A stretch of DNA of 64,000 nt from an archaeon (GCA_018648095.1 JABGRV010000006.1:16559-80558), one strand, 5' to 3'; positions 55,201 to 60,700 are shown, counted from the first letter of the stretch. Notes: generated from the sequence alone by a model not told the origin. Numbers and translations: made by a program.

Positions 55201-56142
55201 CTAATCCTGCTGAGCTGATCCATCATCATCCGATTTCTTTACATCGGATCCGGCTGCGTTATCTTCAGGTGCTTTGTCAGCTTCCGGAGATTCCGCAGTT
55301 TCAGGCTGATCGTCTGTATGCGTCGGCGCGTCTTTGTCTTCTGCCGGCGTGTCCGGAGTTTCATTATTTTCCGGAGCGCCTCCTGCTGCGGATTCAACTG
55401 GCGGTTCTTCTTCGGCGGTCTGCTCTTCAGCCGGAACTTCTTCTTCGGGTTCATCAGGGTTTTGTGCCTTGATGCTCACTCGTATCTCATCCCGGTAAAG
55501 TGTCCAGAAGAGGTGGAGATATATTCCGAGAATGGCGCAGGTGAACAGCACTGCAGAGAAGCTCTTAATTCCGGAATATCCAAACGGAATTGCCGGCCAA
55601 AGAAATCCAAGGAGTGTAACTAGGATTCCCAAGACAACCAGGGAGAGAAGATAAGAGACAAGGAGAATGCCTATCGGAATGACTATCAGAAGGCCGTGAT
55701 AGCGCACATTGTCCCATTTATCTGCCTTTTCACCATCCTCGAGGTATAAAGCGTACTTGAGCCACGGGCTGTTGTGCGCTCCCCGGTTATACCAGTAGCT
55801 CCAGAGGAAAACCGAAGCATAGATCATGGTAAGTCCCCGCCAGACAACCATATTGATCGTCCAGTTGTTCATGCTGGCGATCTGAGTGAAGAAACCACCC
55901 TTAACGCTGGAAGCTGTTTCGATCTGGCCCCATGCGAATATCGGCCCGAGGAAGTTGAGGAGGGTTATGAGGATCGCAGTAACGAACAACCACTTCCACA
56001 TCTTGGGCCTTTCCAGTTTGTCATCTTCTTCGTCACTTGACGAATGCGATGATCTGAAAAACTCTTTCCATCTTGTTTTGAATGACATAGTCATTGTCCT
56101 TTCTCCATTCCATTTCTGGAAGGGGGTTTTGTGCCTAAGCAC
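55201..56142 (-). CDS. multi-TM membrane protein with acidic Pro/Glu-rich C-terminal tail (likely start MTMSFKTRW at 56094)
   Basis: 313-aa ORF. The leader shares gttttgtgcctaagcacgttt with the leader of the next gene. Confidence 0.45.
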   Translation of the reverse strand: MLRHKTPFQKWNGERTMTMSFKTRWKEFFRSSHSSSDEEDDKLERPKMWKWLFVTAILITLLNFLGPIFAWGQIETASSVKGGFFTQIASMNNWTINMVVWRGLTMIYASVFLWSYWYNRGAHNSPWLKYALYLEDGEKADKWDNVRYHGLLIVIPIGILLVSYLLSLVVLGILVTLLGFLWPAIPFGYSGIKSFSAVLFTCAILGIYLHLFWTLYRDEIRVSIKAQNPDEPEEEVPAEEQTAEEEPPVESAAGGAPENNETPDTPAEDKDAPTHTDDQPETAESPEADKAPEDNAAGSDVKKSDDDGSAQQD

Positions 56143-56268
56143 GTTTATCGACTTCCTTTCAACAGAAACAAGGCGCTAGGCCGGCGGCTCAGCAGAGCCA
56201 GGAGGAAAGGAGAGAAAACTCCCGACTCCTGAGATGAGAACCGCCGACCATAACAGCGCCAAATCTAC

Positions 56269-57534
56269 TTAGTCTGCCTTTTCGTCGCTTTGCGAGTCTC
56301 CGTCAGTGGAGGCATCGGGATCGACATCGTCAGTTGCGCCGGTCGCGGGGGGCGTTTCCGAGTCTTCCTGGACGTCGATTGCTTCCGCCGGAACCATCTC
56401 AGTTTCAGGTTCGCGGAGATCACCCAAACCGGAAAGATCCTCTCCCAGGCTGGGATTCTGATCTTCGGGGACTTCTCCGTCAGTCTCGTCGATCGCTGGA
56501 ACTACTACCGCATCCGGTCCATCCGACTCCTGGATCTCGGGAAGATCTCCTGTATCCACATCGATCCCTTTATCGTCGAGATCCTGTAAGGTCAGATCCG
56601 TCTCGAATTCCAGATCGTCCTGGCCGGTGAGGTCACGAAGCTCGGCAAGGGCACCTTGCGCATCCCGATTTCCGATAAGATTTCCGAGCCTACCGAGAGG
56701 ATCTCGCGGACGGAAGTATGCCCCTAGCGGACCAAGGGATACCGGATAGGTGCGGGGACCTCGCAGATAGGGATTGGGGGGGAAGGGCATCCTTGGTCCG
56801 AAGGCCCGCTCGTAAGGACTCCGAAAATCCAGATCCAGGCAGGGATCGTAGGGATTCGCCCTTCCTCTTCCGGGAATCTGGAATCCCCTGTCACCGATCA
56901 TCCGTACCTGATCCGATTCCGGTTCTTCCTCCAGACTTTCGAAGAACTTTCCGATGGAATTCCCATCTCCGGGAATTTCGACCAGGGTGATCGGAGAATC
57001 GGAACTAGCCAACCCGCTCCTCACGAATTCGTCAAAGTCGATCGAAGCCACTGCCGGAGGTTCCGGATAGGGATCTCCACCGAACATTATGAGGGTAGCG
57101 GCGCCCAGTCCGGCATCCAGTCCACCAGGGCCGAAGTAGTCTACTTCGGGGAACGGAGAGAATACTTCCAGGATCTGCGGTTGGGAGGAATCAGGTCGGA
57201 ATCCTTCGATCGTTCTCTGAAGGAAATCATCAAGGACCCGGGCCATCCTTTCCGCTATAACGTCTCCCAGATCATCCCGCGCATCGGGAGCCATCTCGGA
57301 GAGCTCTTCGGGTGAGGCTTCCTCAACTCTCTGAGGAATTAGCTCTGCCATGATGAGCATCGTGGCGGCATGAGTTTCGCTCTCGGCTTCGAGGGTCCCG
57401 CTAAAAGCCGCCCCACAACCACCGCACATCGCGTCACATTTGAATGTTTTCATCTTCATTTTCCTTTCATTCACTCCACAATTGGAGTAAGGTTTTGTGC
57501 CTAAGCACGTTTGTTGTTTACGTTCGTCTAGCAC
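56269..57534 (-). CDS. acidic, largely low-complexity protein with N-terminal CDAMCGGCG motif (likely start MKMKTFKCD at 57459)
   Basis: 421-aa ORF. Preceded by the family H leader motif. Confidence 0.45.
   Translation of the reverse strand: MLDERKQQTCLGTKPYSNCGVNERKMKMKTFKCDAMCGGCGAAFSGTLEAESETHAATMLIMAELIPQRVEEASPEELSEMAPDARDDLGDVIAERMARVLDDFLQRTIEGFRPDSSQPQILEVFSPFPEVDYFGPGGLDAGLGAATLIMFGGDPYPEPPAVASIDFDEFVRSGLASSDSPITLVEIPGDGNSIGKFFESLEEEPESDQVRMIGDRGFQIPGRGRANPYDPCLDLDFRSPYERAFGPRMPFPPNPYLRGPRTYPVSLGPLGAYFRPRDPLGRLGNLIGNRDAQGALAELRDLTGQDDLEFETDLTLQDLDDKGIDVDTGDLPEIQESDGPDAVVVPAIDETDGEVPEDQNPSLGEDLSGLGDLREPETEMVPAEAIDVQEDSETPPATGATDDVDPDASTDGDSQSDEKAD
57461..57520 (-). promoter_or_regulatory. 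family H conserved leader (..taaacaacaaa[c]ct[c/t]actccaattgtggagtgaatgaaaggaaaATG), copy a
   Basis: Five near-identical copies lie immediately 5' of consecutive minus-strand start codons. Each contains the inverted repeat ctcca-attg-tggag and an AAAGGAAA Shine-Dalgarno. Confidence 0.6.
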
Positions 57535-57544
57535 GGTTTGAGGG

Positions 57545-57856
57545 TTATCTTCCTTCCCGCCTGCTGGCCGGAGTTCCGTGATCGAATTTCCTCGGAGCGC
57601 AGCTATCCTGCAACTCCTTGGGATCAGTCACGATCGGAGGAACATAGGGCCCATTCAGGCCATGGATCTCTTTCCAGGAGGAAAGGATCGTACGGAACAG
57701 ATGGTCTACATCGTCCGGCATTTCGTGAACGATATTTCCCAGTTCTTCCGCGATCGCCTCTCCGTCCAGCTCATCCAGAGTACCCTTGTCCTTTGCTTCC
57801 TGAAGCCTTCCCCCCAATTCTTCAATGAGATCTTTCGCTGTTTGAAGCAGGGCCAT
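57545..57856 (-). CDS. small acidic helical hypothetical protein
   Basis: 103-aa ORF. No conserved leader. Confidence 0.3.
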   Translation of the reverse strand: MALLQTAKDLIEELGGRLQEAKDKGTLDELDGEAIAEELGNIVHEMPDDVDHLFRTILSSWKEIHGLNGPYVPPIVTDPKELQDSCAPRKFDHGTPASRREGR

Positions 57857-59932: not shown

Positions 59933-59954
59933 TCAAACCATTGCCCTTACGGAA

Positions 59955-60647
59955 TCAAATAAACCTTCTCCCCGAAGAATCATAGATTCCTGCCGCAGAA
60001 GCCTTCTCGACTTCTCTCATTATCTCCTGGACATTCCACAGGAATTCCTGATCGGAGACGGAGCGGTCGATCCAAGGAGGGTGATGCTCAGGGGCAGCAT
60101 CTAGGATCATCAGAGTTATAACGAAGACCTCAACGATCCTTCTTCCGATGACTCTTGCAGGATTATGCCCTTTATCCGAGCTTTCCTCCTGAGAGTTCAT
60201 AAGTTCCTGGAGGCAGTAGACGATCACGTCAATCTTTCTCGGAGGATTCGGAATTCCAGTAATATCTCCGAACACCTCATACACTCTTTGAACTGCGGTG
60301 ACCATTCTCTCCAACTGGGATCCCCTGGGGATCTGCTTGAAGAGGCTAACTGCCGAGGCGCACTTTTCAGTCGGAGTCGTTCCAGGAAGACTTCCAAGAA
60401 GTTCCTTGGTAAAGTCATGACTCTCGGGAGCACACTTTTCGAAGAACATCTTGATGAAAAGAGCAATCCCTGCACCGAATCCAACCTTTGATTCGCTTCT
60501 AACTCTTCCCCCGGGGGTATTGCCAATCGCCACAGGCACCAACCCACTCTGAAAGAGTTTAGTTAGAGCATCTGCTTCCCCCGATGCTTCAACAGTTCCT
60601 CGAACAATCTTCCCCCCACTATCAATCGCCTCATAATAAATCTTCAT
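59955..60647 (-). CDS. cytoplasmic protein with type II secretion/type IV pilus platform protein F (GspF/PilC) N-terminal-domain-like start
   Basis: MKIYYEAIDSGGKIVRGTVEASGEADALTKLFQSGLVPVAI matches the ..F.Y.A.D..G....G...A.S...A...L...GL.P pattern of T2SSF N-domains. The remaining 190 aa are not GspF-like and have no TM region. Confidence 0.35.
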   Translation of the reverse strand: MKIYYEAIDSGGKIVRGTVEASGEADALTKLFQSGLVPVAIGNTPGGRVRSESKVGFGAGIALFIKMFFEKCAPESHDFTKELLGSLPGTTPTEKCASAVSLFKQIPRGSQLERMVTAVQRVYEVFGDITGIPNPPRKIDVIVYCLQELMNSQEESSDKGHNPARVIGRRIVEVFVITLMILDAAPEHHPPWIDRSVSDQEFLWNVQEIMREVEKASAAGIYDSSGRRFI

Positions 60648-60654
60648 GACACCT

Positions 60655-60700
60655 TTCCTTTCTTCACTCCACGATTGGAGCGAGGTTTGTTGTTTATCAA
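60655..60700 (-). promoter_or_regulatory. family H conserved leader, copy e
   Basis: ttcactccacgattggagcgaggtttgttgtttatcaa, immediately upstream of the 60647 start. Confidence 0.55.

Follow-up and report, generated by a model that had tools for sequence, protein, structure and literature searches.

A recurrent stem-loop and Shine-Dalgarno leader ahead of mostly unrelated genes within an island of foreign composition in a marine DPANN archaeon

The island and its leader-bearing genes

The 64,000-nt stretch of archaeal DNA analyzed here (GCA_018648095.1, JABGRV010000006.1:16559-80558; hereafter the window, whose positions are used as coordinates throughout) carries, between 56.1 and 60.7 kb, five near-identical leaders of about 50 nt and one diverged leader, each containing a stem-loop and a Shine-Dalgarno (SD) sequence and each ending at the start codon of one of a series of consecutive minus-strand genes. 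These genes belong to an island that extends from about 21.65 to 61.9 kb and consists of 49 co-directional genes on the minus strand, nearly all of them without a Pfam match. The island has a GC content of about 50% (GC3, the value at third codon positions, 0.56), against about 38% (GC3 0.31) in the flanks, and this block of about 40 kb looks horizontally acquired by the chromosome of a DPANN archaeon. The flanking genes encode an aIF5B-type IF2, an archaeal-type GluRS, CTP synthase and PPDK, and those of ribosomal proteins L35Ae, L10e and S6e lie just outside the window. The CTP synthase is 75-82% identical to proteins from Woesearchaeota, Pacearchaeota and Nanoarchaeota metagenome-assembled genomes. 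Because these housekeeping genes are archaeal and the CTP synthase is closest to DPANN genomes, the host was assigned to the marine DPANN archaea. The island was found together with both flanks on at least 21 independent contigs from many samples, the five compared being at least 99.97% identical, and its junctions are therefore not an assembly artefact. Integrase and viral hallmark domains were absent from the 40 window proteins scanned, and a provirus was not supported on these grounds.

The leaders precede, in the order of reading, a gene for a T2SSF_N-like protein (59955-60647), two genes for multi-transmembrane paralogs (59351-59878 and 58787-59293), a gene for a soluble acidic ORFan (58041-58739), a gene for an acidic protein of pI 4.05 with the N-terminal cysteine motif CDAMCGGC (56269-57453) and, in the case of the diverged leader, a membrane protein gene (55201-56088). 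The product descriptions of the first-pass annotation were thus about right, as judged from the T2SSF_N hit and the properties of the proteins. It had given 56269, 58041, 58787, 59351 and 59955 as the starts against which the leaders lie; these positions designate the right open reading frames (ORFs), but they are the low-coordinate stop ends, and the leaders are found at the opposite ends. Since all genes of this region are on the minus strand, the leaders have to be read as reverse complement. The genes were also said to be mostly unrelated, and this was the case. In an all-against-all BLASTP comparison of the 49 island proteins, g59293 and g59878 were the only leader-bearing gene products linked to each other, with 36% amino acid identity, so that by this comparison whole-gene paralogy accounts for one leader-gene pair only. 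The predicted structure of the soluble ORFan gave no usable fold (pLDDT 40.7).

Structure of the leaders

The five near-identical copies, together with the diverged sixth one, are referred to as family A. The consensus of the five copies on the minus strand is AAACAACAAA(A)CC-UCRCUCYA-AUUG-UGGAGUGA-AUG-AAAGGAA-N5-9-AUG. It starts with the A/C-rich tract AAACAACAAA, followed by an 8-bp stem-loop (UCRCUCYA-AUUG-UGGAGUGA), 3 nt, and the SD sequence GAAAGGA, which is located 5-9 nt ahead of the AUG. The inverted repeat is larger than the 5-bp stem proposed at first and is closed by a 4-nt loop. Four copies agree fully in the loop AUUG, the 3' arm and the spacer GGAGUGAAUGAAAGGAA. A 28-nt core pattern matched four times at up to 3 mismatches, where 100 shuffles gave an expectation of 0, and a degenerate 26-nt pattern matched all five copies exactly, also with 0 expected in shuffles, so that the repeat is well beyond chance. 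The motif is not scattered at random: the family-A motif is found only at these sites in the approximately 79 kb of this genome that were searched, and the exact leader pattern had no match in the GTDB representative genomes or in IMG/VR. The copies are spaced by 554-1286 nt, with genes in between.

Copy 1 (60645-60697), in front of the T2SSF_N-like gene, begins 14 nt past a tRNA-Val gene, and 16 nt separate the tRNA from its A/C-rich tract (60684-60696). Its stem-loop, UCGCUCCA-AUCG-UGGAGUGA, is at 60664-60683, GAAAGGA at 60656-60662 and the AUG at 60645-60647. In copy 2 (59876-59930), before the multi-transmembrane gene 59351-59878, the stem-loop (59896-59915) lacks the pair that would close the loop and so has 7 bp; GAAAGGA is at 59887-59893, and the start region reads AUGGUUAUG, with the probable start codon at 59876-59878. 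Copy 3 (59291-59345) precedes the paralog 58787-59293 and has its stem-loop at 59311-59330, GAAAGGA at 59302-59308 and the AUG at 59291-59293. In copy 4 (58737-58790), before the soluble ORFan gene, the UAA stop codon of the upstream gene overlaps the AAACAACAAA tract; the stem-loop (58757-58776, at about -37 to -18 from the AUG) is followed by GAAAGGA at 58748-58754 and the probable start codon at 58737-58739. Copy 5 (57451-57520), before the cysteine-motif gene, carries AAACAACAAAC and contains, besides the main stem-loop (57471-57490), GAAAGGA (57462-57468) and the start codon (57451-57453), an extra 4-bp hairpin, GUGC-UUAG-GCAC, at 57497-57508. The partial copy reported ahead of 55201 is real. 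This diverged copy 6 (56086-56146) has a stem-loop at 56105-56124 (CC.UUCCA-GAAA-UGGAA.GG), GAAAGGA at 56097-56103 and, at 56131-56142, the same extra hairpin as copy 5.

The N-terminal extensions MNERK and GVNERK of the predicted ORFs are, as had been proposed, the in-frame translation of GUGAAUGAAAGGAAAAUG. The leader continues the reading frame ahead of the true start without a stop codon, and for this reason the public start calls for the genes between 56269 and 59932 differ across assemblies (193 versus 175, 175 versus 168, 224, 232 or 234, and 421, 396 or 394 amino acids).

Two further properties of the leaders were noted. The sequence GGAGUGA of the 3' arm (minus strand, 57462-57477, 58748-58763 and 59887-59902) resembles an SD sequence of the host type (GGAGGUGA) and is sequestered in the stem. 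Moreover, the AUG just after the 3' arm opens a mini-ORF of 4-6 codons. In copies 2, 4 and 5 its UGA overlaps the AUG of the main frame (AUGA), an overlap missing from copies 1 and 3; copies 2 and 4 have the form AUG AAA GGA AAA UGG UUA UGA, and copy 5 a shorter one. Since copies 1 and 3 have no such upstream mini-ORF or a different one, it was treated as incidental. Another mini-ORF, of 14 codons (MAKVVAARQQGLEK*), is located at 57903-57947 on the minus strand, in a 184-nt gap between two leader-bearing genes. It has a module of its own, with the hairpin CAUCC-AUAACAA-GGAUG at 57966-57982 and GAAAGGA at 57956-57962.

The leader as a unit distinct from the coding sequence

Over positions -50 to -1, nucleotide identity was 0.84-0.92 in the family-A pairs compared, while past codon 15 it was 0.52-0.60, which is the level of random alignments (mean 0.54, 99th percentile 0.60). 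Across the leader families compared (see below), leader identity was 0.84-1.00 and that of the coding sequences was random. In the pairs g58739/g59878 and g47743/g44805 identity drops exactly at the start codon, and two leader-sharing gene pairs are also alike over their first 10-15 codons or so. From these alignments the leader is a discrete constrained unit, and the initial view that more than gene duplication is involved was upheld. Local duplication or gene conversion of such a constrained module is the most likely source of the near-identity among the five copies.

It could also be argued that the approximately 50-nt repeats are recombination joints or duplication scars, left by unequal crossing-over or gene conversion as units of leader plus gene are shuffled in a fast-evolving surface-protein island, and that the SD sequence is the only functional part. 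The island is indeed rich in tandem paralog families, in several of which the leader and the first 15 codons or so are 87-100% identical while the remainder is random, a pattern reminiscent of variable families of surface genes that retain conserved 5' modules. The Mycoplasma vsp/vlp-type surface loci likewise combine conserved upstream sequences and N-terminal codons with divergent gene bodies in tandem arrays, in a symbiont with a reduced genome. They differ from the present locus in that no invertible promoter or recombinase is found here and in that the N-termini of several leader-sharing genes are different. Scars would leave unexplained why unrelated stems occur at a similar distance from the SD sequence in different families and why pairing is preserved on the sense strand only (both described below). 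We consider this account improbable as a full explanation; it is compatible with the RNA module proposed below as a description of its origin, and is no substitute for it.

Pairing is maintained on the sense strand

In the alignment of the six copies the stem was present, with 95.8% of the stem cells paired, compared with 34-56% when the 3' arm was slid by 1-3 columns, and only two stem cells were unpaired. Two stem pairs are altered on both sides with pairing kept; both are in the diverged copy 6 and therefore represent one lineage. Five one-sided stem changes in family A are all transitions that preserve pairing via G.U. RNAfold, one of the checks suggested initially, predicted the hairpin in 6/6 copies with GAAAGGA unpaired (z-scores from -1.6 to -2.7).

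The strand on which the structure acts was assessed from the type of mismatch, the stem detection having permitted either transition mismatch (G.U or A.C). The leader stems contained 22 G.U and 4 A.C, whereas random sense segments gave a ratio of 115:88 (p=0.0025). Sense folds were more stable than antisense folds (Wilcoxon p=1.6e-4), and the one-sided substitutions between paralogous leaders (three events each in families A and C and at least one in family B) all keep the sense pairing. Because G.U outnumber A.C, sense folds are more stable and substitutions keep the sense pairing, these sequence comparisons favour a structure selected in the sense mRNA over a DNA palindrome or an antisense terminator.

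The corresponding two alternatives can be weighed on these data. In the first, the leader would be a DNA promoter and operator, with the A-rich tract as a weak TATA box, the palindrome as the binding site of a dimeric factor, and each gene having its own leader of about 18 nt with nothing but the SD sequence. The A-rich tract is centred about 45 nt before the AUG, so that the transcription start site would fall right after the hairpin, and the stretch from the TATA box to the start site is where repressors of archaea typically bind. The tract is, however, unlike the host TATA consensus TTTAAAWA. The excess of G.U over A.C and the one-sided changes that keep RNA pairing are not required of a DNA palindrome, and the many unrelated palindromes of the island would call for as many factors. 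Such an operator is quite unlikely. The proposal of a shared operator or 5' untranslated region structure was thus sustained as an RNA structure joined to an SD sequence, while its DNA operator version is disfavoured by the 22:4 ratio.

In the second, the plus strand would carry antisense terminators, since it reads as a hairpin followed by GUUUUGUUGUUU, and a consensus scan marked copies 2, 3 and 5 as terminator-like on that strand. The scan found 20 terminator-like sites against a shuffled expectation of 19.0. On the plus strand the wobble pairs become C.A mismatches and the folds are weaker, the T-rich tail is missing in most other hairpin families, and there would be no reason for a terminator ahead of every start codon. 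We regard this function as very improbable. An intrinsic terminator on the sense strand was rejected as well, as the stem is followed by AAUGAAAGG and not by a U-run.

None of the leaders matched the Rfam 15 covariance models even at E<=1, tRNA-Val being the only hit at the gathering threshold. The proteins g58739 and g60647 matched only themselves among 5.8 billion proteins. In the collections searched, neither the island nor the leader-bearing genes had any relatives.

The same layout recurs across the island

When every intergenic region of the island was read, an A-rich tract, a stem-loop of 5-10 bp, 0-7 nt and GAAAGGA were found in this order before many genes, with stems unrelated in sequence. 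A family-C stem-loop, ACCUGGGCA-UAAU-UGCCUGGGU, with 2 G.U pairs, is located at 47759-47780 on the minus strand, as are all those that follow; it abuts GAAAGGAAAC and precedes the gene 46997-47743. The second one, CUCGGGCA-UGAU-UGCUUGGG (44822-44841), precedes the unrelated gene 44125-44805. Between these copies at 47.7 and 44.8 kb (stems CCUGGGCA/UGCCUGGG), three stem positions differ and all remain paired through a switch between Watson-Crick and G.U pairs. In family D, the stem-loop GUGCCU-GAUU-AGGCGC at 44089-44104 is followed by 5 nt and GAAAGGAAA before the gene 43352-44068, and sister copies lie at 43319-43337 and about 42,555. A 10-bp stem-loop at 46622-46644, ACACUCGGAU-UAA-GUUCGAGUGU, abuts GAAAGGAG, has AAACCAAACAAAC ahead of it and precedes the gene 46320-46607, while UCCGCGC-AAUUA-GCGUGGG at 46277-46295 runs into GAAAGGAAAG before the gene 45475-46263. 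Family B is represented by UUGCGUU-GAA-AACGCAA at 52711-52727, followed by AACA and GAAAGGAAG, before the gene 51752-52693; its 5-bp relatives, with GCGU/GCGC stems, precede 53328, 51679, 50931 and 49796 (49.8-53.3 kb).

This recurrence was also evident in counts. Initial folds of the 40 nt upstream of each SD sequence gave z < -2 in 19/49 leaders. A perfect hairpin of at least 6 bp ending between -8 and +2 of a sense GAAAGG was present at 21/69 sites, against a background of 9.4% (p=8e-7); the same test gave 1/11 on the antisense strand and 1/18 in the flanks. The 3' end of the stem was 14-20 nt before the AUG in 13/18 cases, and a standard folding tool predicted a hairpin and a free SD sequence for representatives of the other families. 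Since about half of the right-half genes are preceded by the same layout with different stems, the hairpin looks generic to island expression, and from the sequences the five copies look like one family of an island-wide hairpin architecture. A role in regulation or translational control, as suggested earlier, agrees with an RNA structure joined to an SD sequence, but a special five-gene regulon is not specifically supported, the layout being island-wide.

The family-A hairpin might nevertheless be an RNA operator for a dedicated RNA-binding protein or endoribonuclease that co-regulates these five or six genes, in which case the other hairpin families would define other regulons. Because the loop and the spacer are also invariant, a family-specific RNA-binding factor is possible. 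The invariance of loop, 3' arm and spacer in four copies next to coding flanks at random identity, the correspondence of separate hairpin families with separate gene groups, and the selection of the structure on the sense strand would all fit such an operator. On the other hand, no candidate regulator was found, the island proteins scanned being ORFans without an RNA-binding or nuclease domain, and a tiny genome would need to encode eight or more regulators, a different one for each hairpin family. The identity of adjacent repeats can also be explained by gene conversion. We therefore hold the RNA operator to be rather unlikely.

The repeats were also compared with the attC sites of integrons, which separate promoterless cassettes, here in the manner of a CALIN array. 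As in Vibrio-type cassettes, similar, near-identical repeats lie between co-oriented, mostly unrelated ORFs of foreign composition. Integrons exist in archaea, including Nanoarchaeota, mostly without IntI (PMC9668308), and the decisive test was therefore that of the core sites. No pair of R'' (RYYYAAC) and R' (GTTRRRY) sites 40-140 nt apart was found on either strand between 56.0 and 60.8 kb, and over the whole window each strand has a single such pair. The stem has 8 bp and a 4-nt loop, whereas attC is an imperfect palindrome of 55-140 bp; in contrast to cassette arrays, the repeat here contains the SD sequence, terminates at the start codon and pairs on the mRNA strand. No tyrosine recombinase was detected among the 40 window proteins scanned or among the Pfam hits in about 15 kb beyond both ends. 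An integron origin is effectively refuted.

A putative long transcription unit with its own expression signals

A TATA-like box at -45 to -20 was found for 25/39 host genes and 2/49 island genes, and no family-A leader has a TATA box of the host type. Host genes usually have no SD sequence, in a leaderless style, and operon-internal host genes use GGAGGT-type sites. AAAGGA-type SD sequences precede 47/49 island genes, GAAAGGA itself being present at 30. A 3' tail of the host 16S rRNA ending in ...CCUCCUUUC would account for GAAAGGA; with a ...CCUCC(U) tail, the island sites would be foreign to the host. Bacterial sigma-70 promoters were rejected, with 12 sites against 18.6 in shuffles.

From 62,064 to 38,838, that is over about 23 kb with about 32 genes and a tRNA gene, no intergenic run of at least five T was found on the sense strand. 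This minus-strand stretch (38838-62064), with almost no TATA-like boxes and stem-loops at 16/32 genes, is a putative long transcription unit. Its intergenic regions measure 47-76 nt (from about 61.9 to about 38.8 kb). Intergenic runs of at least five T are frequent in the left half (38.8-21.6 kb), where most of them follow G+C-rich hairpins. The hairpin-SD modules are present at 16/32 genes in the terminator-free half and at 2/17 in the other (p=0.012). The sole plausible archaeal promoter for the right half is a GTATATATTG box at about 61,950, in an AT-rich stretch just outside the GC boundary.

The tRNA-Val(UAC) gene (60712-60785) is co-oriented with the other genes of this stretch and lies 26 nt past the stop codon of the upstream gene. 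No TATA box was found ahead of it, and there is no room between the cistrons for a promoter of its own. Co-transcription of the tRNA would require cleavage of the precursor by RNase P and RNase Z. Hand-folding indicated that its acceptor stem begins with a U1.C72 mismatch.

Proposed role and comparison with known systems

Taken together, the repeated leaders, their position, the paired stem with its sense bias, the SD sequence exposed in predicted folds and the missing promoters and terminators find their best explanation, to which we give about an even chance of being right, in an intercistronic module of the sense RNA that shields the 5' ends created by processing and leaves the ribosome site accessible within a long polycistronic transcript. 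The right half of the island would be made as a very long polycistronic precursor that includes the tRNA. Cleavage of this precursor would take place at the tRNA, through RNase P and RNase Z, and probably also in the unstructured A-rich tracts, through one or more endonucleases. After release of the tRNA, the downstream RNA would start a few nucleotides before the A/C-rich tract and stem-loop of copy 1. A stem-loop at or near the new 5' end may then block 5'->3' exonucleolytic decay and insulate the SD sequence from the upstream sequence, so that every cistron, whatever its product, would receive a uniform, stable and accessible translation start.

Several points weigh against this explanation. 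In copies 1-5 the loop, spacer and 3' arm are more nearly invariant than a hairpin with a generic protective role would have to be, and this may indicate recognition of the sequence itself or a recent gene conversion. The z-scores of some individual leaders are modest (-0.7 to -2), and about half of the genes in the right-half stretch have no clear hairpin. The GAAAGGA of the island is unlike the GGAGGT type of the host. The AAACAACAAA tract, examined by eye, has no U and differs from the uridine-rich signature reported for archaeal processing cleavage, UNMND|NUNAY (PMC5499594). Finally, the p-values given above are optimistic because copies within a family are not independent; the recurrence of the layout across sequence-unrelated families is a stronger argument than they are.

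In Bacillus, a 5'-proximal hairpin and/or a strong ribosome-binding site, including STAB-SD, stabilizes long stretches of downstream mRNA (PMC3997798). The bacterial stabilizers that can be compared are the B. subtilis aprE leader, ermC, phage SP82, the B. thuringiensis cryIIIA STAB-SD and E. coli ompA/papA. They share with the leaders a short hairpin followed by a strong SD sequence of the GAAAGGAGG type, and they protect from decay that depends on the 5' end (PMC3997798). The strong SD sequence near the hairpin is found here as well, GAAAGGA lying 3 nt past the family-A stem and being unpaired in predicted folds. The bacterial elements, however, occur once, at the primary 5' end, whereas those of the island stand before many internal cistrons in the chromosome of an archaeon and would become 5'-proximal only after processing.

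In Methanolobus psychrophilus, 5'P-seq revealed intergenic processing 20-30 nt upstream of start codons, near the ribosome-binding site, in intergenic regions of about 54 nt (PMC5499594). The processed transcripts showed higher stability and better translation, and exonucleolytic trimming had a stem-loop past the site as its structural mark (PMC5499594). The geometry of the present leaders, taken from sequence alone, is compatible with such processing (stem of copy 4 at -37 to -18, intergenic regions of 47-76 nt). A conserved reusable cassette of hairpin and SD sequence was not described in that organism.

Polycistronic RNA is segmented by several other structured elements, namely the REP/BIME hairpins of E. 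coli operons, the RNase III sites of phage T7, plastid intercistronic expression elements and, as synthetic insulators, RiboJ and Csy4/Cas6 sites. Like the leaders, they lie between cistrons and would make the expression of each cistron independent of its neighbours. REP elements differ in that they stabilize the upstream cistron and are not tied to an SD sequence, and RNase III sites differ by their much longer duplexes. The hairpin with AAUGAAAG matches the archaeal repeat handle AUUGAAAG at 7/8 positions; this is a resemblance only, with no array or cas gene in the window. A CRISPR repeat or Cas6 site was rejected, as neither a regular repeat-spacer array, with spacers of about 30-40 nt, nor Cas domains in the scanned window proteins were found.

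A more far-reaching version, which we consider improbable, is that the island is a super-operon of a cross-domain style with its own signals (GAAAGGA sites and hairpin cassettes but no TATA boxes) in a host whose genes are TATA-driven and mostly leaderless, and that each of its cistrons is released and activated individually by a dedicated endoribonuclease or RNA-binding protein that recognizes the hairpins. If so, it would be the natural counterpart of the synthetic Csy4/Cas6 operon insulator, and the hairpin families would correspond to separately addressable gene groups. If the protective intercistronic module proposed above is correct, it would represent a natural modular expression cassette, in which an A-rich landing tract is joined to a protective stem-loop and a strong SD sequence and which can be placed before unrelated genes within one very long transcript of an archaeon, and would show how a DPANN host of the leaderless type expresses a large block of genes of foreign composition. 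It would also provide a defined RNA element for studying mRNA processing and 5'-end protection in archaea, and account for the inconsistent start calls in the public annotations of this abundant marine archaeon. The island, with its ORFan membrane and acidic proteins and a vault homolog, is of interest of its own for host interaction and horizontal transfer in DPANN archaea.

Other features of the island

Many of the island genes encode membrane proteins whose tails are acidic or rich in Pro and Glu. The gene at 30606-33362 (minus strand) encodes a full-length homolog of the major vault protein (918 amino acids; MVP shoulder domain, E=9e-25). Its nearest relatives are about 42% identical and mostly bacterial (Eremiobacterota, Planctomycetota and Myxococcales), and one vault homolog (L089) was found in another archaeal context, adjoining aIF5A. 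A search for the donor through the relatives of the vault protein showed none of the hairpin-SD architecture in their neighbourhoods. The gene at 26823-27926 (minus strand) encodes a GluR0-like ligand-gated ion channel with SBP_bac_3, Ion_trans_2 and Lig_chan-Glu_bd domains. Tandem paralogs at 49796-51734 and 35363-36975 (minus strand) have leaders and first 15 codons or so that are 91-100% identical, the remainder being random, and the conserved first codons of these two families encode a signal-peptide-like MKRTIMM... sequence.

The larger gaps of the island (at about 28756, 25966, 40000, 35450/36930 and 48650) contain long G+C-rich hairpins, and those of the left half, followed by T-runs, have the anatomy of bacterial-type intrinsic terminators. 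Several are near-identical repeats, for example GGGGCCGGGTA...CCCGGC at 28.8 and 25.95 kb.

At the boundaries, six copies of GTTTTTTATTT (minus-strand reading) are present at 21400-21620, just past the left GC boundary, after a long G+C-rich hairpin at about 21,600-21,650, and may either form a stacked oligo-T terminator or represent att-arm repeats. A perfect 12-nt direct repeat, AATCCAAAGGAT, occurs at 21291-21302 and 62203-62214, about 300 nt outside each GC boundary, and may be a target-site duplication, although it is marginal (E=0.015 within a 500 x 620-nt comparison). Integration targeted to the tRNA gene was not supported, since no partial tRNA repeat was found. In the AT-rich stretch upstream of the first gene of the island, a 17-nt direct repeat, AAAGATGAAAATTTTCT, occurs twice at 61998-62055 (minus strand), near the TATA-like GTATATATTG box at about 61,950 and a sigma-70-like TTGTCA-16-TAAAAT sequence at 62061-62034. 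The low-GC region on the right side of the island (62327-64000; L002 4523-8321, reaching just past the right end of the window), which encodes a DUF87/Zot/HerA-like ATPase and several small SD-led ORFs, may be a separate integrated element.

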